Source of the DNA: Promethearchaeota archaeon
GTDB lineage: Archaea > Asgardarchaeota > Lokiarchaeia > Sigyniarchaeales > SOKP01
NCBI GenBank assembly: GCA_011364925.1
Contig: RDOA01000004.1
Span: 66,265 to 130,264 of the forward strand
Direction of reading: 5' to 3'
DNA: 64,000 nt
Shown here: in pieces, positions 46,683-64,000 of the stretch
Numbering within the stretch: the first letter of the stretch is position 1
Layout: every line of letters begins with the position of its first letter
The notes under the pieces: generated by a model
What the model saw: only the letters and a program-made list of their open reading frames with translations
What the model was told of the DNA's origin: nothing
Databases searched by the model: none
Made by a program: the position numbers and the translations under genes

Positions 46683-47618
46683 TTAGCTCTCGATAATATT
46701 CTTTAATTTAGGGAATATTCGAGGATAGTGTACAGCCATGCAGTGAATTCCTTCCAATAGATTTTTAGCTCGTAATTCTGTTATGAAAGGTTTAAAAAAT
46801 TCGTAATTATATTGGTCATACAATTCTTTCTGTTGCTTTTTATCTGTAATGTCAGTCTTTACACTCTTCCACTTAGCCAGAATTTCTTTAGGCACACTAA
46901 CGCCTGGTACGAAGGTATCAAAACCTTTAGCTATTCCATATGATTTCATAGGAAAGATTCCAAGTAATACCGGTACTTTATATTTCCTAATTTCCGTTAA
47001 AAATTCGATAGTTCTGTCTAGATCGTATACTACTTGAGTTTGTAAAAATTCACAACCTGCTTCTGCTTTTCTACCTATTTTCAAGACTTCTGCACCCATT
47101 GGTTCAGCATTAGGATTTGCAGCTGCACCAACATGTAAAGTTGGGGGAGCTTCGATTTCATTTCCGTTAATACTACCTTTATCCACCATTTCTCTCACTA
47201 GTCTGACGAGGTTTGCAGAATCAAGATCGAAAACTGGTTTTGCTTCCGGTACATCACCCAAAGCTGTATGATCACCAGTTAGAGAAAGAACATTGCGTAT
47301 CCCTAAGGCGTGAGCACCCATAATCATACCAGCTATTCCTAATTTATTAACATCTCTAACGGTCATTTGCCATACGCACTCTAACCCTGCATTTTTTTGT
47401 ATTAGGTGGGTAGCTGCCATCGAATTTATCGTTACTATTCCCAAAGGACTATCTGTAACATTAGCTGCAATTACATAAGGGGCCATTTCTTTAGCTTCTT
47501 GGATAGTGTGAGAGAGATCAGTTGTCTTCTCGGGCTCTAACTCACCCGTTAAAACGAATTCACCCTTAGCAAGAGCTTCCCCTAATTTGGAATAAGTTTT
47601 TATTTCTGTCATTTCCAT
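46683..47618 (-). CDS. metF: Methylenetetrahydrofolate reductase MetF (copy 1)
   Basis: GELEP, NVTDSP, RDVN, LTGDH, FLQTQ; start after GGAGGT SD. Confidence 0.9.
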   Translation of the reverse strand: MEMTEIKTYSKLGEALAKGEFVLTGELEPEKTTDLSHTIQEAKEMAPYVIAANVTDSPLGIVTINSMAATHLIQKNAGLECVWQMTVRDVNKLGIAGMIMGAHALGIRNVLSLTGDHTALGDVPEAKPVFDLDSANLVRLVREMVDKGSINGNEIEAPPTLHVGAAANPNAEPMGAEVLKIGRKAEAGCEFLQTQVVYDLDRTIEFLTEIRKYKVPVLLGIFPMKSYGIAKGFDTFVPGVSVPKEILAKWKSVKTDITDKKQQKELYDQYNYEFFKPFITELRAKNLLEGIHCMAVHYPRIFPKLKNIIES

Positions 47619-47620
47619 TA

Positions 47621-48292
47621 CTACCTCCAAACTACCTCTCTTTGATGTCCAATTTTACTCCAATCTATGGGATCTCTTAATTTCGCAAATAAATCTAAAC
47701 GACCTAACTCTTTTAGACGATTATATATCAATATCCACCCGCAATCCTTCTCGTAATTTCCCACTTCACATTTTCCATCCACCATCCCTCCACATGGACC
47801 ATTCATTAACGATTTGGCGCAAGTTGTTACAGGACAAATCCCACCAGTTTCATTTAACAGACAATCGCCACACCCTCTACACCGCATGTAAAAACGTCCT
47901 ATGCGTTCGGTCATGCCAATAAACTCAGTATTATTAGCTGTGAAAACTGGGATATCTGGGTGATTTTTCGTAAGAACTTCAACGATCGATTGGACACCTA
48001 AACCACAGGATAGGGTTAGAATACCATCAGAATTTTTAACATCTTCTTCGATCTTGCGTAAATCTTTTTTCATTACGCGATTATCACACACATCTTCACT
48101 CACTATTGCATTGGATACATTGAAACCTCTTTCTTTTAGTTTTTCAGACCATTCTTCAGCTCCTTCAGTACCACCAGTTTGACAAAGAGCAGCACAAACT
48201 CCGCAACTTACAATTAATACATTTTTTACTTTATAATTATTCAAGGCCTCAAAAACTTCTTCTTCTGGCTTTTTTGTTGTTATTACAACCAT
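47621..48292 (-). CDS. metV: MetV, Zn/Fe-S small subunit of MTHFR (copy 1)
   Basis: CGVCAALC, LSCGLGVQ, CRGCGDC, CPVTTCAKSLMNGPCGG, CEV, CGW. Confidence 0.88.
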   Translation of the reverse strand: MVVITTKKPEEEVFEALNNYKVKNVLIVSCGVCAALCQTGGTEGAEEWSEKLKERGFNVSNAIVSEDVCDNRVMKKDLRKIEEDVKNSDGILTLSCGLGVQSIVEVLTKNHPDIPVFTANNTEFIGMTERIGRFYMRCRGCGDCLLNETGGICPVTTCAKSLMNGPCGGMVDGKCEVGNYEKDCGWILIYNRLKELGRLDLFAKLRDPIDWSKIGHQREVVWR

Positions 48293-55866: not shown

Positions 55867-56328
55867 CTATATTGGGACTTTTCCGTTTTGAGTGGCAGTT
55901 TTAATCGGTTTTAATACAACGCAAACCCGTTCCACGCCTTTAACGTCACTTCTACCTCTAAAATTTTCTATAACCGCATCTAATTCAGTTATTTCTGGAA
56001 CATTTACTTTTACGAGAATGCCACATTCTCCAGCTAAGAAATAAACTTCTTCACATTGAGGTAGTATTTGTGCTTCTCGTAATAACTCCTTTAATTCGGA
56101 TTGACTCCTCGGGATTAATGTGATAAATGCTATAATACAGCGTTCGTCTTCTCGACACACTTTTATCGTAAATTTTTCAATTACATTTTCATCTTGAAGT
56201 TTAATTACCCTTTTTCTAACTGTGGATTCACTCAATCCAATTACATCACCTATTTCTCGGTAAGGTCTTCGCGAATCCTCAATTAACATTTCAAGAATTT
56301 GTTTATCTTTTTCATCAAGATTTTTCAT
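55867..56328 (-). CDS. Lrp/AsnC family transcriptional regulator
   Basis: LDEKDKQIL, DSRRPY, GLSESTVRKRV; start trimmed to MKNLD. Confidence 0.93.
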   Translation of the reverse strand: MKNLDEKDKQILEMLIEDSRRPYREIGDVIGLSESTVRKRVIKLQDENVIEKFTIKVCREDERCIIAFITLIPRSQSELKELLREAQILPQCEEVYFLAGECGILVKVNVPEITELDAVIENFRGRSDVKGVERVCVVLKPIKTATQNGKVPI

Positions 56329-56393
56329 ACTTCTATCACATCCTTCCAATTTATTCCAATGAAATAAAAAAATTGATTAAATCACAATTTTCA

Positions 56394-57332
56394 TTAAAAA
56401 TTTTTTAACAAGGGTTCAAAAAGTCTTTCGTAGTGGACTGCCATGCAATGAATACCAGCAGCTTTGGTAGTTTTCTTAATTTCCATAATAAATGGTTCGA
56501 AAAATTCAATGTTTATTTTGTCGATAACTTCATTGCGCTTTTTCTTATCCTCTTTATATTCCTTCTTTGCTTTTTTAAGTGCACTTAACAAATCTTTAGG
56601 GACTGATACTCCCGGGATATATTCGTCAAAATATGATGCAATTCCATAGTTTTTAAGTGGAAACAGTCCTAATAGCACAGGAACATTGAACTGCTCGAGT
56701 TCTTTAAGAAAATCTTTCGCATCATCAATATCAAACGCGGTTTGTGTTTGAATAAAGTCAGCCCCCAATCTTACTTTTCTCCCTACCTTCAGAATTTCGG
56801 GACCACGAGGGTTCGAATTTGGATTTGCTGCACACCCGACATTAATCTCAATTTTATCTCCCTCAATTTCATTTCCTTCTAAATCAGTTCCATCATCAAC
56901 CATTTTAGAAACAAGATCTATCAATTGTGTAGAATCTAAATCGTAAACTGGTCGTGCATTTTTGTTATCTCCTAAGGCAGAATGATCTCCCGTTAAGGCT
57001 AACAGATTTTTCAAACCTAAAATTGCGCCTCCCAAAATATCTCCGAATAATGCAATTCTATTCCTATCTCGAACTGTCATTTGCCATATTGCTTCTAATC
57101 CTACTTTCTCCTGCACTAAATAGCTAGGTACCATTGAACACGTATATGCGTCTCCTTGAGGTCCATCAGTTACGTTAGCAGCCGTGATCTTGCCCGTTTT
57201 TTTCATTTTTTCAGCAGAATGCAGAATGGAGGAAAGATCTGTCATTTTTCTAGGTTCTAATTCACCAGTAAATAAGAACTTGCCTTCTCTCATGGTTTTT
57301 ACTAAATTACTATATGCCGGTCTTTTTGTCAT
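56394..57332 (-). CDS. metF: Methylenetetrahydrofolate reductase MetF (copy 2)
   Basis: GELEP, NVTDGP, RDRNRIAL, LTGDH, GADFIQTQ. Confidence 0.92.
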   Translation of the reverse strand: MTKRPAYSNLVKTMREGKFLFTGELEPRKMTDLSSILHSAEKMKKTGKITAANVTDGPQGDAYTCSMVPSYLVQEKVGLEAIWQMTVRDRNRIALFGDILGGAILGLKNLLALTGDHSALGDNKNARPVYDLDSTQLIDLVSKMVDDGTDLEGNEIEGDKIEINVGCAANPNSNPRGPEILKVGRKVRLGADFIQTQTAFDIDDAKDFLKELEQFNVPVLLGLFPLKNYGIASYFDEYIPGVSVPKDLLSALKKAKKEYKEDKKKRNEVIDKINIEFFEPFIMEIKKTTKAAGIHCMAVHYERLFEPLLKNF

Positions 57333-57335
57333 CGG

Positions 57336-58031
57336 TTATTTCTCCTCCTCCATTGTTTCTTCTTCATTTGTATAAGTTTTATTGATTTCAGCAAATCGAG
57401 GACTTGACCATTTTCTGTAGTTTCTTGGAGGTCGGTACTTATTAAAAAGATCCAACCTATTAAATTTTCTCAAGCGATCCCATATCTTTACCCAAGCGCA
57501 ATCATGTGTGTATCCACCAACTTCGCATTTACCACCAACAGTTCCTCCACACGGTCCATTACTTAAATTCTTCGCACAACCTGCCATAGGGCATACACCA
57601 CCAGTAACCCCTAATAGACATTCCCCACATGTCTCACAATATTCAGCAAAATAGTTTTCAGCGTTATTTTCAGCTCCTCCAAACAAGCTATTTTGAGCAG
57701 GGTAAGTCAAGATATTTTCAAAGACTTTATTCATCATAACCACCCCTAGTCCACATGATAGCGATACTATCGCATCATAATGTTCAATAAACGGTCGCAC
57801 GGTTGTCGCTGCGATTCTATCGTCACACTGTCTAAGAACTGTTATCGCTTTCCATTTTAATTCCTTTCCTTCACTTCTAGCTTTTAGTTCTAACATTTGT
57901 GCTAACACTTTTGCTTCATTTATCGAACGAGGAGGTTGACAACAACCATCGCATCCAACTATTAAAATTTTCGAGTAGGATTTTATCATATCGTATATTT
58001 CTTCAATATCTTTTTGTTGCGTTATTATCAT
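57336..58031 (-). CDS. metV: MetV, Zn/Fe-S small subunit of MTHFR (copy 2)
   Basis: MIITQQK, GCDGC, RQCD, LSCGLG, CETCGEC, CP...CAK...NGPCGG, CEV, CAW. Confidence 0.9.
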   Translation of the reverse strand: MIITQQKDIEEIYDMIKSYSKILIVGCDGCCQPPRSINEAKVLAQMLELKARSEGKELKWKAITVLRQCDDRIAATTVRPFIEHYDAIVSLSCGLGVVMMNKVFENILTYPAQNSLFGGAENNAENYFAEYCETCGECLLGVTGGVCPMAGCAKNLSNGPCGGTVGGKCEVGGYTHDCAWVKIWDRLRKFNRLDLFNKYRPPRNYRKWSSPRFAEINKTYTNEEETMEEEK

Positions 58032-58060
58032 TCTTTATAACTCCTTTTTCCTAAAATTAT

Positions 58061-61000
58061 TTATTTTGAGACTTTAATTGATTTATTTTTATATTCTGAT
58101 TCAATTGGTCCTAATTTTTTTACTTTATCAACAAATTCTATCATAGTTTCCGAAAAAAGTTTGCCTTCACTAGCGGAAACCCACTTTCGTAAAAATCTTT
58201 CCGGATTTATTCCTATTGATTCCAATTTTGATTCAATATCGCGGGTTCTTCTCAGTGTGTCTTGATTTCCTGCGATATAGTGACAATCTCCTATGTGACA
58301 TCCCCCAACGAAAACTCCATCAGCACCTTCCAAGAATGCTTGTAAAATCAACCTCTTTGGGAGTCCTCCGGAACACATAACTCTAATTGTTCTTACATTT
58401 GGTGGATATTGGTATCTACTCACTCCAGCTAAATCTGCACCAGCATAACTGCACCAATTACACAGAAAAGCTACAATTCTAGGGCGTCCATTACCGAATT
58501 CAACATGTGCTGCTTCGGCAATCATAGGTTCAATCTGTGAGGTTCCGAAATGACTCATAGTAATTGCCTCAGCGGGACATTCAGCTGCGCAATCTCCACA
58601 TCCTTTGCATAATAATGGATTCACTTCAGAAATCATTTTACCTTCTTCATATCTTACTCCGACTGCACCATAATTACATACTTCTGCACATCGATTACAC
58701 CCTATACATAATGCAGGATTGACTTTTGATATAATACCTTCTGTGACAAGTATATCCTTTGATAGAATGGTTGTAGCTCGCGAAGACGCTGATAATGCTT
58801 GGGCAATACTTTCACTAATTGTCGCGCTTCCACGCGCTGTGCCACACAAAAAAATACCATCAGTTGCAAAATCTGAGGGTCTGAGCTTTACATGTGCTTC
58901 TAAGAAAAATTTCTCGCTATTTACTGGGACTTTAAGCATTTTAGCCAATTCTTCGTTTTCTTCTCCATTTGAGACAATTCCGGCGCTTAAAGCAATAAAG
59001 TCAGTATCTATAGAAATCTTGCCTAATTTTGGGGTAACTACATTAACACTTAGGCGACTACCTTTTTTAACGATATCAGGAGGATTTTCTTGATCGAATC
59101 GAATGAAAACAATTCCCTTTTCTCGAGCTAAGTTGTAAAATTTTTCTTTAAATCCATAAGTTCTTATATCTCTATAAAATATTACAATATTCAAGTTTGG
59201 ATTTACTTCTTTTGCTTTTATTGCGTTTTTTATTGCTTCAGAACAACACATTCTGCTACAATAAGGATGTTCTTCGTTTCTAGAACCAACACACTGAATC
59301 ATTACAATTGTTTCTGCTCCGTTGATCTTTTCAGAATTTGTAAAAAGAAGATTCTCTAATTCAGATTGTAAAATCACTCTATCATCGTTCCCATAAAGAA
59401 ATTCGCCTTCTTTTGGTTGATATTCATGAGCACCAGTAGCAACGATTATGATACCGTGTTGAAATTCTTTAAATTCTTTATTTTTGCCCTGTGTTAACCT
59501 AGTTGTAAAATTACAAACATATCCGCCAATTGAATTAATTTTAGCATTAAGAAAAACATTGATTAATTTATGATCATCAACTTTTTTGATTAAATCAGTG
59601 ATTAATCCTTGAACATCATATTTTTCTATGGTTTGATATACATTCTTCGAAAAACCACCTAATTTATCCCCTTTTTCAACAAGATATACTTCAAATCCTT
59701 GGTTTGCTAAATTAAGTGCAGCTGTCATTCCAGCTACACCTCCGCCTATTACCAATCCTTTATGTATGACCGAAACGTGTTGTTCTTGTAAGGGTATTAA
59801 ATTACGAGCCTTTGCAATTGCCATCCTTACTAAATCCTTTGCTTTTTCTGTAGCTTCCTTTGGTTCATGCATGTGTACCCATGAACATTGATCTCGAATA
59901 TTAGCTAAATCAAATAAGTATTTATTTAATCCCGCTTCTCGAATAGTTGCTTGAAATAATGGTTCGTGCGTTCGAGGAGTACAAGAAGCTACGATCACTC
60001 GATTTAAATTATACTCCTTTATTTTTTCCTTAATGTTTGTTTGGGTGTCAGCTGAACAAGTATATAAATTTTTTTCAGCATACGCTACATCTGGTAATTT
60101 ATTAGCATAATCAACTACGTCAGCAACATCAACCACCCCAGCGATATTAATTCCACAGTGACAAACAAAAACGCCTATTCGAGGAGGTTCTCCAATAATA
60201 TCAATTTCTTTTGGAAGCTTTTTCTCTTCGATTAGTGTATTTCTAGCCTCAGACAATAATATATTAACAGCTCCAGCAGCAGCACTCGCTTCTACTACAG
60301 TTTCCGGTATATCTTTTGGTTCAGAAAACATACCACAAACATAGATTCCTTCCTTAGAAGTTTCTACTGGGGAAAAAGGTTTTGTTTTACAGAAGAACTC
60401 TTCATTCAGTTCAACACCTAAAGTTTTTGCTAATTCTTTCGTACTCCTGTTTGGCATCGCTCCTACGGCCAGAATTACTAAATTAAAAACTTCCTCAACA
60501 ATTTCCCCGTTTTCTGTTTCGTAATTAAGGATTAAATCATTTGACTCTGAAATCTCTTTCACTGATGAAATTCTACTTCGGATATATCTAACTCCATATT
60601 CATTTTGGGCACGATCAATATACTTATCGAAATCTTTACCACAAGCTCTGATATCCATAGAAAAAATGGTGGGTTGAACAAGTGGCATATGTTCCTTTGC
60701 AATTACCGCTTCCTTAGCGGTATACATGCAACATACAGAAGAACAATATTCCGCCCCATGTTTTTTATCTCTCGAACCAACACACTGTAAGAACGCAATT
60801 TTCTTAGGAATGATCCCATCTGAAGGTCTAAGTATTAGACCAGAATGAGGACCGCTTGCACTTAATATACGTTCAAATTGAATACTTGTAACTACGTTAG
60901 GAAATTTTCCAAATCCGTAATGATGTGTAGGCTCTGGATCATATTCATCAAATCCAGGTGCTAGGACTACCGCACCTACATTAAGAGAAGTTTTTTTATC

Positions 61001-61522
61001 TTTAAGTGTATAGTCTATAGCTTTGGCTTTACATACACCTTTACAAAAACCACAACCTATACAAACTTCTTGATTAATTGAAAAAACTAAAGGAACTGCT
61101 TGAGGGAATTTTACAGATATAGCTGCTCTTTTCGAAAGTCCCTCGTTAAAAAAGTCAATCGCCTCCACGGGACATTCTTGAGCGCACACTCCGCAACCTG
61201 TGCATGTTTCTTGATCTAGATATAAGGATTTTTGTTTTAAATCGACCTTAAAATTACCCGCTTTCCCTGAAATTTTTTCGAGAGTTGTATTAATTAAAAG
61301 GTTTATATTTTCATGGCGTCCTGCAGCTACTAATTTTGGAGCAAGAATACATATGGCACAGTCATTTGTTGGAAAAGTTTTGTCTAACTGAGACATTACC
61401 CCACCGATACTCATTGTTGATTCTACTAGATAAACTTTATACCCAGAATCACCTAAATCCATCGAAGCTTGTATACCTGCTATTCCGCCTCCTATAACTA
61501 AAACCGAGCCAACTTTTTCCAT
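58061..61522 (-). CDS. hdrA: Tandem HdrA-HdrA-MvhD fusion flavoprotein
   Basis: Two GGGxAG FAD motifs, two CVGSR/YCSxxCC clusters, CHCG domain, ferredoxin motifs, C-terminal MvhD (FLCNWCSYAGAD, VMCSG, GCHIGDCHY). Confidence 0.93.
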   Translation of the reverse strand: MEKVGSVLVIGGGIAGIQASMDLGDSGYKVYLVESTMSIGGVMSQLDKTFPTNDCAICILAPKLVAAGRHENINLLINTTLEKISGKAGNFKVDLKQKSLYLDQETCTGCGVCAQECPVEAIDFFNEGLSKRAAISVKFPQAVPLVFSINQEVCIGCGFCKGVCKAKAIDYTLKDKKTSLNVGAVVLAPGFDEYDPEPTHHYGFGKFPNVVTSIQFERILSASGPHSGLILRPSDGIIPKKIAFLQCVGSRDKKHGAEYCSSVCCMYTAKEAVIAKEHMPLVQPTIFSMDIRACGKDFDKYIDRAQNEYGVRYIRSRISSVKEISESNDLILNYETENGEIVEEVFNLVILAVGAMPNRSTKELAKTLGVELNEEFFCKTKPFSPVETSKEGIYVCGMFSEPKDIPETVVEASAAAGAVNILLSEARNTLIEEKKLPKEIDIIGEPPRIGVFVCHCGINIAGVVDVADVVDYANKLPDVAYAEKNLYTCSADTQTNIKEKIKEYNLNRVIVASCTPRTHEPLFQATIREAGLNKYLFDLANIRDQCSWVHMHEPKEATEKAKDLVRMAIAKARNLIPLQEQHVSVIHKGLVIGGGVAGMTAALNLANQGFEVYLVEKGDKLGGFSKNVYQTIEKYDVQGLITDLIKKVDDHKLINVFLNAKINSIGGYVCNFTTRLTQGKNKEFKEFQHGIIIVATGAHEYQPKEGEFLYGNDDRVILQSELENLLFTNSEKINGAETIVMIQCVGSRNEEHPYCSRMCCSEAIKNAIKAKEVNPNLNIVIFYRDIRTYGFKEKFYNLAREKGIVFIRFDQENPPDIVKKGSRLSVNVVTPKLGKISIDTDFIALSAGIVSNGEENEELAKMLKVPVNSEKFFLEAHVKLRPSDFATDGIFLCGTARGSATISESIAQALSASSRATTILSKDILVTEGIISKVNPALCIGCNRCAEVCNYGAVGVRYEEGKMISEVNPLLCKGCGDCAAECPAEAITMSHFGTSQIEPMIAEAAHVEFGNGRPRIVAFLCNWCSYAGADLAGVSRYQYPPNVRTIRVMCSGGLPKRLILQAFLEGADGVFVGGCHIGDCHYIAGNQDTLRRTRDIESKLESIGINPERFLRKWVSASEGKLFSETMIEFVDKVKKLGPIESEYKNKSIKVSK

Positions 61523-61524
61523 TT

Positions 61525-62295
61525 TTATCCCCCCATAATTGAAATAAAAGTTGGTATTTCTTCGTTAATTTCATCGACATCGACCAAACCTCTTGACCTT
61601 AATACAACTATATGCTCTAACACTTCGCTCGCTTTGACGCCAATTTCATTTGCTATAGTAGGCACAGATTTACCCTTGCTTTTAATTTTTACAATAATTT
61701 TTTGACGAATGAATTCGTTTTGGATAACCTCATCAATTAAATTTTCAAATTTTTCTGCTGAAATTTGCTCTCCGTACACATTTCCATCATTGACTAATTC
61801 TCTTTGTCTAGCAATCAGTCCTCTTAATCTCGAATCTTCTAAAACATTTTTAACAGCTTCCAAATTGTCTCTTATTTCTGAATTCTTTTCTTTATTGTTT
61901 ATTGGAGATGTGCCTAGCTTTTGTATTTGATTAGTAAATTCAGATACGATTTGAGCAAATCTATTTCCTTCCGATGCAGAGACCCAATCCAAACGCATTC
62001 GTTCAGAAAAATTAATTAATTGTAGTAGTTTGTTTAAAGCGTTCATTTTAATTTCAGCTTCATAATTACCAGTTAAGTAATGACAGTCACCTAAGTGACA
62101 ACCTAAAACTAGCACTCCATCAATCCCATGGATGAACGCATCAGCGATAAATGAAGGGTCAACCCTACCAGAACACATAACGCGAATAACTCTTATATTA
62201 GGGGGATACTGAATTCGACTAACACCCGCGAGGTCCGCACCAGCATAAGAGCACCAATTGCATAAAAATCCTAAAATTTTCGGTTCAAATGTCAT
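61525..62295 (-). CDS. mvhD: MvhD [2Fe-2S] subunit with C-terminal winged-helix extension
   Basis: FLCNWCSYAGAD, VMCSGRV, GCHLGDCHY; C-terminal SVPTIANEIG...VLEHIVVLRSRGLV. Confidence 0.9.
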   Translation of the reverse strand: MTFEPKILGFLCNWCSYAGADLAGVSRIQYPPNIRVIRVMCSGRVDPSFIADAFIHGIDGVLVLGCHLGDCHYLTGNYEAEIKMNALNKLLQLINFSERMRLDWVSASEGNRFAQIVSEFTNQIQKLGTSPINNKEKNSEIRDNLEAVKNVLEDSRLRGLIARQRELVNDGNVYGEQISAEKFENLIDEVIQNEFIRQKIIVKIKSKGKSVPTIANEIGVKASEVLEHIVVLRSRGLVDVDEINEEIPTFISIMGG

Positions 62296-63972
62296 TTATG
62301 CTTCTCCTCCGTACGTGAGAATTTCTGCTCGTATTTGATCACCAGTAAAATGATGAATTATTATTGCTTTTTTAGGACAACTTGCTCCGCACACGCCACA
62401 TCCTTTACAAATTACTTTATTTACTCTGGCAGTATCGGTGCTTTCATCTTTGGTAATAGCTTTATACGGACAAATTTTAATACATGCCTCGCATCCTATG
62501 CATAATTCCTCAATTACTTCCGCAGTTGATCCTTCTACTTCTAAAGCGTCTTTCCATAATATTCTAGATGCCCGAGAAGCCGCTGCATTAGCTTGGCTAA
62601 TACTTTCAGCAATATCCGCAGGCCAATGTGCAGAACCACAAACGAAAACTCCATCCGTCGCAAAATCTACGGGTCTTAATTTTACATGAGCTTCTAAAAA
62701 GAAATTGTTTTCTTCAAGCGGGACTTTCAACATTTTTGCAAGCAGCGTTGAATCTTCATTTGCTACGAGAGGTGTAGATAAAACTACTAAATCTTGAGGT
62801 ATTTCAATTTCTTGATTCAATAAATCACTATACACTTTTACTAAATTTTTCTTTATTACAGGAGGCTTTTCGGGTATATATTTTACAAATAAAACACCCA
62901 TTTCTCTAGCTTTTCGATAATACTTTTCATATACCGTTCCATGTGCTTGTATATCCTGGAATAATATCGTAATATGTGCATCTGGATTTTTTTCCATAAC
63001 TAACATAGCATTTTTGATAGTGCTCATACAACAAATATTAGAGCAATATTTTCTTTCTTCATTACGGCAACCGACGCATAATATCATCGTAATATTGTTA
63101 GCAGCAACTTGATTGTTCTTCAGTAAACCTTCTAAATCTAGTTGGCTAATTATATTTTTACCATTGTACCCATAATATCCTTTAGGTGTTAATGGTGTAG
63201 CACCAGTTGCTATAATTATTGTACCAGCTTCGACTTCATTTATTTTATTATTTTGATTAATAGAAACTTTGTAATTTCCAATAAAACCATCAACTTTTTC
63301 GATTACACTCGATTTGTAAACTTTAATTTTCTTATGCGATTCAATTAACTTAATAGAATCCAATAGTTTCGAAGCTTCCTCATTACTCGGATACACTTTA
63401 TTAAGGGATTTGAGGAGTCCTCCTAACTCTGGTTCTTTTTCGATTAGTGAAACTTCAAAACCTTGATTACCTAAATTTAGAGCTGCTGTCATTCCCGAAA
63501 TTCCACCACCTATAACTATAGCTGATTGATTAACTGATACTTTTATTCTTTCTAATGGCTCCAATAAAGCTGCCTTATAAACACTCATCCTAATGAGATC
63601 CTTTGCCTTTTCCAATCCTTTCTCAGGTTCTTTCATATGAACCCAAGAGTCTTGATCTCTAATATTTACCATTTCGAATAAGTAAGGATTTAAACCTGCT
63701 TCTTCGCATATAGCTCTAAACAATGGTTCATGCGTCCTAGGGGAACAAGAAGCCACGATAACGCGATTTAACTTTTGTTCTTTTATATTTTCTTTAATTT
63801 CAGTTAATCCTACTTCGGAACATGTGTAAAGGTTATCTGCGGAGTAAGTTACATGAGGTAAAGTTTTTGCATACTCAGCTAAAGAAGGAACATCTAATAC
63901 ACCACCTATATTCGTCCCACAATGGCACACAAATACTCCAATTCTGATATCTTCTTCTGGCATTCTACTCAC
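62296..63972 (-). CDS. hdrA: Heterodisulfide reductase subunit A-like flavoprotein
   Basis: IGVFVCHCG, CSPRTHE, GGGISG, YCSNICC, C-terminal 2x[4Fe-4S]; may start at ATG 63963. Confidence 0.93.
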   Translation of the reverse strand: MSRMPEEDIRIGVFVCHCGTNIGGVLDVPSLAEYAKTLPHVTYSADNLYTCSEVGLTEIKENIKEQKLNRVIVASCSPRTHEPLFRAICEEAGLNPYLFEMVNIRDQDSWVHMKEPEKGLEKAKDLIRMSVYKAALLEPLERIKVSVNQSAIVIGGGISGMTAALNLGNQGFEVSLIEKEPELGGLLKSLNKVYPSNEEASKLLDSIKLIESHKKIKVYKSSVIEKVDGFIGNYKVSINQNNKINEVEAGTIIIATGATPLTPKGYYGYNGKNIISQLDLEGLLKNNQVAANNITMILCVGCRNEERKYCSNICCMSTIKNAMLVMEKNPDAHITILFQDIQAHGTVYEKYYRKAREMGVLFVKYIPEKPPVIKKNLVKVYSDLLNQEIEIPQDLVVLSTPLVANEDSTLLAKMLKVPLEENNFFLEAHVKLRPVDFATDGVFVCGSAHWPADIAESISQANAAASRASRILWKDALEVEGSTAEVIEELCIGCEACIKICPYKAITKDESTDTARVNKVICKGCGVCGASCPKKAIIIHHFTGDQIRAEILTYGGEA

Positions 63973-63998
63973 ACCTTCATTACTATTTCTGCTGCTTT
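63969..63998 (-). CDS. 3' end of an upstream gene, probably another HdrA module (partial)
   Basis: Reads KAAEIVMKV*; its TGA overlaps the GTG of the next gene; resembles the AAAxKA end of HdrA FAD domains. Confidence 0.5.
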   Translation of the reverse strand, partial: KAAEIVMKV

Positions 63999-64000
63999 AG

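Follow-up and report, generated by a model that had tools for sequence, protein, structure and literature searches.

Type IV (Hdr-type) methylenetetrahydrofolate (methylene-THF) reductases, in which MetFV is combined with HdrCBA-MvhD, have been described for Moorella thermoacetica and Sporomusa ovata (Mock et al. 2014, as summarized in PMC9430772 and PMC9012536). In archaea, MetFV-HdrA-MvhD clusters occur in Candidatus Syntrophoarchaeum, and replacement of Mer by an archaeal MetF has been published (PMC9012536); ANME-1 is known for heterodimeric HdrA paralogues, in tandem or fused, and for Hdr clusters that contain FrhB (Chadwick et al. 2022, PMC9012536). Within the literature collection that was searched, no paper linked MetVF or MetFV to Asgard archaea. 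Here we describe an hdrA-mvhD-metV-metF operon at the right end of a 64,000-nucleotide stretch of DNA (the window; contig RDOA01000004.1 of assembly GCA_011364925.1) from a Lokiarchaeial Asgard archaeon. Comparison with related loci gives good support to the coupling of HdrA/MvhD to MetVF. We give about an even chance to the reading that the operon encodes an Hdr-type methylene-/methyl-pterin oxidoreductase, consisting of a conserved MvhD-MetVF wire and an exchangeable HdrA head, that substitutes for Mer.

The locus shares with the Moorella and Sporomusa systems the position of metV-metF directly after mvhD, HdrA with two thioredoxin-reductase/FAD modules (two such pairs here), an MvhD-proximal HdrA module without an inserted ferredoxin, and a proposed role at the methylene/methyl step. 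It differs from them in several respects. The operon of the source genome lacks hdrCB, although hdrB and hdrC are a feature of the family; it encodes four HdrA modules and two MvhD rather than two and one; MvhD is fused to HdrA, and an FrhB-like gene is a neighbor; and MetVF is of an archaeal type that probably acts on tetrahydromethanopterin (H4MPT). Moorella has a GltD/NAD(P)H insert that is missing here, and the conserved Glu/Lys (E/K) pair, which we used as a marker of bifurcating flavins following PMC9430772, is present in all flavin modules here but in only one in Sporomusa.

The operon was rebuilt across contig C45 and the window (G000:C59:66265-130264, G000 being the source genome), whose right edge coincides with the contig end. 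Its order is hdrA431-hdrA555-mvhDx-hdrAA/mvhD-metV-metF(-lrp), and all of its window genes are on the minus strand. The source genome is a 3.9-Mb metagenome-assembled genome (MAG) of a Loki-type archaeon with 33% GC and a completeness rating of 100%; its public relatives include Promethearchaeota/Promethearchaeia entries such as Loki_b32, ABR04, and ABR11. Analysis of open reading frames and domains bore out most of what an earlier note had described from the letters of the window: the gene order (partial hdrA, hdrA, mvhD, an hdrA/hdrA/mvhD fusion, metV, metF, and lrp), three complete HdrA modules with the YCSxxCC...K motif, two MvhD domains, and gaps of at most about 30 bp down to metF. From hdrA555 downward the measured gaps were 0, 2, 29, and 3 nt, followed by 44–65 nt between metF and lrp. 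The 29-nt gap separates the fusion gene from metV and contains a Shine-Dalgarno sequence, AGGAG, 9 nt ahead of the metV ATG. Because a T7 run between metF and lrp precedes the regulator gene, lrp may have its own transcript. The note's statement that hdrB, hdrC, and hydrogenase genes are missing from the window also held, since a profile search of the 64 kb gave no CCG (HdrB) or [NiFe] hydrogenase match.

The partial hdrA at the window edge proved to be real, but only its last nine codons lie in the window. The residues they encode agree with the C-terminus '..KAAEIVMRV' of 431-aa HdrA orthologues in three relatives (G034, G002, and G031), and the first 120 codons were found on the other contig (G000:C45:363-1), where they are 93% identical to the G034 orthologue. 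The note had suggested reading onward for hdrBC. There is no next window, because this one ends with its contig; C45 shows a 484-nt AT-rich spacer upstream of hdrA431, then a divergent frhB-like gene (C45:847-1968), and no hdrCB. The possibility that hdrCB is hidden in the assembly gap was rejected, because both edges of the gap fall within hdrA431.

The HdrA modules were assigned to types by alignment to solved HdrA structures (8RVU and 5ODC) together with motif checks. Modules of the first type, m1 (hdrA431 and fusion residues 1–440), have no N-terminal Fe-S domain, retain a TxDCxxC motif that contains the Cys197 ligand, and carry an inserted ferredoxin. Modules of the second type, m2 (hdrA555 and fusion module 2, the latter spanning residues 441–1010 when the C-terminal ferredoxin is included), have the N-terminal CxCGxNI domain and C-terminal 2x[4Fe-4S] clusters but neither Cys197 nor an inserted ferredoxin. 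The logic of N-terminal cluster and Cys197 is thus shared out in complementary form between m1 and m2, a pattern of complementary loss that Chadwick et al. read as an obligate HdrA heterodimer (PMC9012536). The operon contains two HdrA'-HdrA''-MvhD units that are paralogous to each other, one of them spread over three genes and the other fused, in keeping with the "expanded" version that the earlier note had suspected. Between the units, hdrA431 and module 1 are 44% identical, hdrA555 and module 2 are 49% identical, and MvhDx and the fused MvhD are 53% identical. The motifs YCSSVCC..K, YCSRMCC..K, and YCSNICC..K were all found in the window; the FAD motif GxGxxG, CSxxCC, and Glu/Lys are present in the three complete window modules and in the G034 431-aa orthologue, and the Glu/Lys pair is retained in all four HdrA modules. 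For every module the best NCBIfam model was HdrA2.

Several known systems come close to these proteins. In comparison with methanogen MvhAGD-HdrABC (PDB 5ODC, 8RVU), full-length alignments were obtained for the HdrA domains (E values of 1e-195 to 1e-199), MvhD aligns at 1e-47 to 1e-50, and the N-terminal cluster and partner-subunit Cys197 logic is shared; in place of the methanogen homodimer, however, there would be obligate heterodimers, split or fused, MetVF rather than a hydrogenase follows MvhD, and HdrBC is absent. The complementary loss of Cys197 and the N-terminal domain, the FrhB-like partners, and an archaeal-type MetF in place of Mer are shared with ANME-1 and Syntrophoarchaeum; the fusion differs from theirs in its reversed module order (the Cys197 module is first), and the gene order and the Asgard lineage differ as well. 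HdrA2B2C2 of Methanosarcina acetivorans, an F420H2- and ferredoxin-dependent enzyme (PMC5296606), likewise has MvhD fused to HdrA and supplies the best-matching model, but it consists of a single HdrA with HdrB2C2, uses the heterodisulfide as acceptor, and has no MetVF.

To compare the locus with its relatives, we read the metV1 locus in 33 genomes and in 80 loci from contigs. Among about 56 related Lokiarchaeial genomes, for which the variant counts are approximate because some loci are partial, five cassettes occupy one common slot (thermosome, PEPCK, small GTPase ... metV-metF-lrp-MBL). Variant B, hdrAA/mvhD-hdrC-hdrB-metVF, is Moorella-like and is present in about 40 genomes. Variant E, frhB(divergent)-hdrC-hdrB-hdrA431-hdrA555-mvhDx-hdrAA/mvhD-metVF, was found in six genomes, including Loki_b32, and variant A, which is variant E minus hdrCB, in another six, including the source genome; one of these is truncated at the end of its contig and may belong to E. 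Variants C (hdrAA/mvhD-metVF) and D (a 910-aa NfnB/GltD-like-ferredoxin-MvhD protein, then metVF) are present in two genomes each. Thus hdrC-hdrB share the operon with metVF in about 46 of the roughly 56 genomes (variants B and E), and lrp lies downstream of metF in variants A, B, and E. The frhB-like gene is beside hdrA431 in all variant-A loci with upstream sequence (the source genome, G034, G002, G031, and G013) and was observed at one variant-E locus. The synteny comparison that the earlier note had called for therefore came out in its favor: HdrA/MvhD and metVF form one conserved unit in the Lokiarchaeial loci, and MvhD is beside MetV in every one examined. The MetV-adjacent MvhD is also retained in other phyla: in Bathyarchaeota, Methanobacteriota, and many Dehalococcoidia, the gene immediately preceding metV contains MvhD. 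In a Halobacteriota MAG (L107) the order is metV-metF-[NfnB+HdrAA]-[MvhDx]-[HdrAA].

The domain composition of variant D, an NfnB/GltD-like FAD/NAD(P)H domain with ferredoxin and MvhD directly before metV, was seen at L009:14344-17076 (G008) and in L023 (G004). The same type of fusion occurs in Dehalococcoidia (L092, L097, and L102), where metV is not followed by metF.

Sliding-window identity and separate trees of head and tail revealed that the 1153-aa fusion has a chimeric origin. Residues 1 to about 920 group with P-type HdrAA, that is, the 1004-aa protein of a paralogous cluster in the same genome (cluster P, described below) and a 1008-aa protein of G060, with a Shimodaira-Hasegawa-like approximate likelihood ratio test (SH-aLRT) support of 100. 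The same region is only 43–47% identical to variant-B heads and distant from them in the tree. The tail (residues ~935–1153; ferredoxin and MvhD), in contrast, groups with variant-B tails at 65–72% identity. The recombination junction is at about residues 920–935 (nt ~58720–58760), and in variant D the NfnB-like head is joined at the matching point, residue 931 of the window's fusion. A tree of MvhD unites the MetV-adjacent copies from variants A, B, and D in a single clade (90/87) and pairs MvhDx with the MvhDx of cluster P (97/93). The tree of concatenated MetVF has the more distant lineages at its base, first G060 with variant C and after it G059 and G049, each with variant B; variants A, E, and D are gathered in a single derived clade (SH-aLRT 100). 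The comparison with variant B thus has two sides: metV, metF, lrp, and the ferredoxin-MvhD tail are orthologous and occupy the same slot, whereas the heads come from different lineages, and in variant B hdrCB separates hdrA from metV and the second flavin module of its single HdrA pair lacks E/K.

By these comparisons the fusion is identified as a chimera of a P-type head and a tail that descends with MetVF. Because the tails group together while the heads differ, and because variant D joins at the same point, the ferredoxin domain-MvhD-MetV-MetF segment is the constant core, on which the head has been exchanged in place two or more times, each time at the same junction. Variant E is nested within A in the MetVF tree, and A and E are sister clades in the head tree. 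The hdrCB genes of variant E are P-type, with 55–57% identity to the source genome's own cluster-P genes and 31–37% to variant-B hdrCB. That they are as distant from cluster P as is the rest of the head, at roughly 55%, would tip the polarity between A and E toward an E-like original state. The loss of hdrCB in the source subclade is real. A history of head swaps at a fixed junction is not described in PMC9012536.

Cluster P lies about 30 kb before the window and consists of 11 genes (C59:24746-37462; L042:1746-14462) in the order hdrC-hdrB-frhB-hdrA438-hdrA563-mvhDx-hdrAA(1004 aa)-mvhD, then FlxC-like, FlxB-like, and FlxA-like genes. The end genes encode two Fe-S proteins and an FAD/NAD/[2Fe-2S] protein, an Flx-like NAD(P)H module. 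The HdrA and MvhD parts are each 52–65% identical to their window counterparts, and the window's head apparently derives from a cluster of this type. Its end matches the Flx pattern of Desulfovibrio FlxABCD-HdrABC (Ramos et al. 2015, as cited in PMC9430772), in which mvhD, two Fe-S genes, and an FAD/NAD/[2Fe-2S] gene follow one another, and so displays another occupant of the MetVF position; it differs in having FrhB and two HdrA pairs, and in the window operon MetVF stands where cluster P has its Flx-like genes. Cluster P itself combines two HdrA heterodimers with a disulfide site and with modules for F420 and NAD(P)H. Its MvhD (C59:27694-28071) has an identical protein at C40:431-808, beside more hdrB/hdrC genes; this copy arose either by recent duplication or as an artifact of assembly or binning.

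According to PMC9012536, the C-terminal ferredoxin and MvhD of the solved methanogen enzyme are the entry branch of the hydrogenase, and HdrBC and the inserted ferredoxin domain receive the two bifurcated electrons. Because MetVF is joined through a C-terminal ferredoxin and MvhD, where the hydrogenase enters in the methanogen enzyme and Flx in cluster P, we place it by analogy on the MvhD branch of HdrA, the docking place of hydrogenase and Flx, and not in the place of HdrBC. The proposed enzyme would then have two layers. The first, a vertically inherited output wire, would lead from the HdrA C-terminal 2x[4Fe-4S] clusters through the MvhD [2Fe-2S] cluster and the Fe-S protein MetV to the flavin of MetF. 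The second would be an exchangeable flavoprotein head, which in the source subclade is a duplicated HdrA'-HdrA''-MvhD unit in split and fused copies, probably recruited from a paralogous cluster of the Hdr/FrhB/Flx type by recombination immediately ahead of the C-terminal ferredoxin domain. The two partners of each HdrA pair would form a built-in heterodimer, one contributing Cys197 and the inserted ferredoxin, the other the N-terminal cluster and a C-terminal ferredoxin. Through MvhD, the two-electron entry or exit branch, MetVF would trade electrons pairwise with the HdrA flavin; a second branch would run to ferredoxin through the inserted ferredoxin domains, and the third partner would probably be F420, through the divergent FrhB-like protein, or else HdrBC encoded elsewhere. 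The net reaction would be a reversible conversion of methylene- and methyl-H4MPT, or of their tetrahydrofolate (H4F) equivalents, by flavin-based con- or bifurcation with ferredoxin and F420, in place of the Mer step.

The methylene-H4MPT couple has an E0' of about −320 mV, and for this reason it is not a high-potential acceptor. Other values are −200 mV for methylene-THF and −414 mV for H2 (PMC9430772), and about −340 mV for F420 and −500 mV for ferredoxin-level couples (PMC9012536). Given these potentials, F420H2-driven ferredoxin reduction would balance only with H4F. With H4MPT, the favorable directions would be methyl oxidation together with reduced ferredoxin to give F420H2, or reduction from H2-level donors.

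The genome agrees with this reading in that Mer is absent: the best match scored 129.6 bits, and no protein exceeded the TIGR03555 cut-off of 348.7, which answers a question raised by the earlier note. Mch and Mtd, which act with H4MPT, are present. Several observations weigh on the other side. FolD, which acts with H4F, is encoded too, and an attempt to separate H4F from H4MPT specificity of the two MetVF pairs of this genome by phylogeny failed. Both pairs fall inside the archaeal MetVF assemblage, MetVF2 as an unresolved long branch. The C45 FrhB-like protein has both FrhB_FdhB Pfam domains (N and C), but its NCBIfam scores are below the cut-offs (169.9 bits against 269 for the subfamily and 148 against 331 for the equivalog), it is only ~35% identical to the cluster-P FrhB, and its gene is divergently transcribed. 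The acetyl-CoA synthase subunit CdhC gave only 38–49 bits in the assembly, where the TIGR00316 cut-off is 356; since CdhC is thus not above its cut-off, the pathway context is not a textbook Wood-Ljungdahl pathway. Subunits of the corrinoid Fe-S protein (CdhD/E family) are scattered (C70:43604-45058, C45:10593-11744, and C24:12296-12865), and a complete CODH/ACS was not found with the queries used despite the 100% completeness rating. Finally, the bacterial type IV enzymes themselves have no established reaction (PMC9430772).

Three other readings were weighed. According to the first, the complex is a plain electron wire without energy coupling, in which F420H2 (through the FrhB-like protein) or another donor supplies the HdrA flavins, and electrons pass through MvhD-MetV to MetF, again as a substitute for Mer. 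The absence of Mer and the FrhB-like neighbor are as expected, non-bifurcating HdrA homologues exist (PMC9430772), and variant D, with its entire HdrA head exchanged for an NfnB/GltD-like NAD(P)H module, suggests that a simple dehydrogenase head can serve. Four HdrA modules, two MvhD, inserted ferredoxins, and conserved E/K pairs nevertheless far exceed the needs of a wire, and the heterodimer complementarity is strictly conserved. We consider this reading unlikely.

The second develops the proposal of the earlier note: MetVF takes the role of HdrBC and methylene-pterin that of the heterodisulfide as high-potential acceptor, with co-reduction of ferredoxin from H2, F420H2, or NAD(P)H. The lack of hdrCB in the variant-A operon fits this proposal, as do the 55–57% identity of the closest match to variant-E hdrCB in the source assembly (no close orthologue was found elsewhere in it) and the E/K signature in all flavin modules; with H4F and an F420H2 donor the energetics would roughly balance. 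Against it weigh the variant counts, because hdrCB and metVF stand together in about 46 of about 56 genomes and MetVF is thus no substitute for HdrBC in the family, and the attachment of MetVF at the C-terminal ferredoxin and MvhD, the hydrogenase/Flx position. The H4MPT couple would, moreover, be too low in potential to power the reduction of ferredoxin by F420H2 or NAD(P)H. The proposal was not supported, and we regard it as quite unlikely.

A third reading, that the adjacency reflects no complex, HdrA/MvhD serving HdrBC and a hydrogenase elsewhere and MetVF acting independently with ferredoxin like clostridial MetVF, could cite the stand-alone MetVF of the same genome but is very improbable, because the MvhD-metV order survives three independent head replacements and spans phyla, the ferredoxin-MvhD tail descends with MetVF while the head is swapped, metV follows a 29-nt gap with its own Shine-Dalgarno sequence, and Sporomusa pull-downs link MetVF, MvhD, and HdrA (PMC9430772).

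Within the preferred reading of a conserved MvhD-MetVF wire with an exchangeable head, a more far-reaching form is a tandem bifurcation machine without a disulfide branch, in which two HdrA heterodimers in series would couple methyl-/methylene-H4MPT to F420 and ferredoxin. We think this form quite unlikely. If true, the methyl branch of these Mer-less Asgard archaea would earn or consume low-potential electrons at a step that is taken to be neutral in energy, and the HdrABC, double-HdrA, and NfnB-like heads would represent lineage-specific tuning of the coupling.

What is added here to the known systems is the double-HdrA variant without hdrCB, the replacement of heads at a fixed junction, and the reading, by analogy, of MetVF on the MvhD branch. 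In Lokiarchaeia, which lack Mer, the enzyme of the methylene/methyl step sets the energy cost or yield of the one-carbon branch, a figure on which all models of metabolism and syntrophy in Asgard archaea draw. For the bacterial type IV enzymes, a biochemical definition has been elusive since 2014. The head swaps seen in nature single out the ferredoxin-MvhD-MetV-MetF core and define the junction at residues ~920–935, which yields a minimal construct for expression, and they provide a natural set of chimeras with comparable donors: an HdrABC head, a double-HdrA head with or without HdrBC, and an NfnB-like head.

Features of the window that bear on the operon (coordinates are window positions; aa, residues of the encoded protein)
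Feature	Coordinates	Strand	Description
hdrA431, 3' end	63969..64000	-	Last 9 codons 63998-63972 ('..KAAEIVMKV') and TGA stop 63971-63969; truncated by contig end
hdrA555	62296..63963	-	555 aa from its ATG; m2-type HdrA: N-terminal CxCGxNI Fe-S domain, FAD, YCSNICC..K, C-terminal 2x[4Fe-4S] (2x CxxCxxCxxxC)
mvhDx	61525..62295	-	256 aa; MvhD/FlpD aa 7-128 plus 128-aa extension
HdrA-HdrA-Fd-MvhD fusion	58061..61522	-	1153 aa
Fusion module 1 (aa 1-440)	60203..61522	-	m1: thioredoxin-reductase domain with FAD, TNDCAIC (Cys197 equivalent), inserted 2x[4Fe-4S] ferredoxin, E/K
Fusion module 2 (aa 441 to ~925)	58748..60202	-	m2: N-terminal Fe-S and FAD domains, E/K kept
Fusion tail (aa ~926-1153)	58061..58747	-	C-terminal 2x[4Fe-4S] ferredoxin and MvhD (FlpD domain aa 1016-1138)
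metV1	57336..58031	-	Cys-rich Fe-S subunit, DUF5981/PF12225; N-terminal GCDGCCQPPRS
metF1	56394..57332	-	MTHFR (methylene-THF reductase) family (PF02219), archaeal ANME-1/Bathyarchaeota-type group; adjacent to and co-oriented with metV1
lrp/asnC regulator	55867..56349	-	Probable start ATG 56328 (153 aa, as in relatives)
metV2-metF2	46683..48292	-	Stand-alone second pair; 36-39% and ~50% identical to pair 1

The second pair, metV2-metF2, has no redox neighbors; an LRR protein gene is upstream and a PAS histidine kinase gene downstream. The pair is kept across the genus, usually 7–20 kb from pair 1. A sequence motif at the MetV N-terminus, GCDGCxQPPR[SG], marks the MetV adjacent to MvhD/Hdr (loci L044-L123) in Asgard archaea, Bathyarchaeota, Hadarchaeota, Halobacteriota, Methanobacteriota, and Chloroflexota; in MetV2, in other archaeal MetV that stand alone, and in the MetV of bacterial type IV enzymes, different residues take its place. 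The motif may mark a docking or cluster site, a correlation that is confounded by phylogeny. Complex prediction for MetV and the MvhD tail gave a score of 0.24 (mark 0.32), which counts neither for nor against association, and a sequence search of the PDB with a MetV profile gave no matches.

MvhDx consists of an MvhD [2Fe-2S]-type domain (aa 1–130) and a C-terminal winged helix (~205–256), connected by a helical linker in which NVYGE is conserved. A model with a pLDDT of 80.5 predicts the same three parts, and Foldseek found a weak likeness of the winged helix to ArsR/SmtB-type domains.

In the genome as a whole there are 14 MvhD matches, 48 CCG-domain matches (roughly two domains per protein), and a single [NiFe] hydrogenase large subunit, which adjoins hdrCB on C67. 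In G060, a member of another Lokiarchaeial family, the P-type HdrAA (region L017:5342-10259, which takes in its neighbor) is 61% identical to the window fusion and adjoins a 546-aa luciferase-like protein of the Mer-family fold, 3 kb from an hdrAA/mvhD-metV-metF operon. Four MvhD homologues of the source genome (C38:176672-177040, C112:75697-76065, C112:15075-15440, and C5:1192-1554) contain two in-frame TGA codons each; they are probably selenocysteine (VhuD-like) forms, and none is in the metVF operon.

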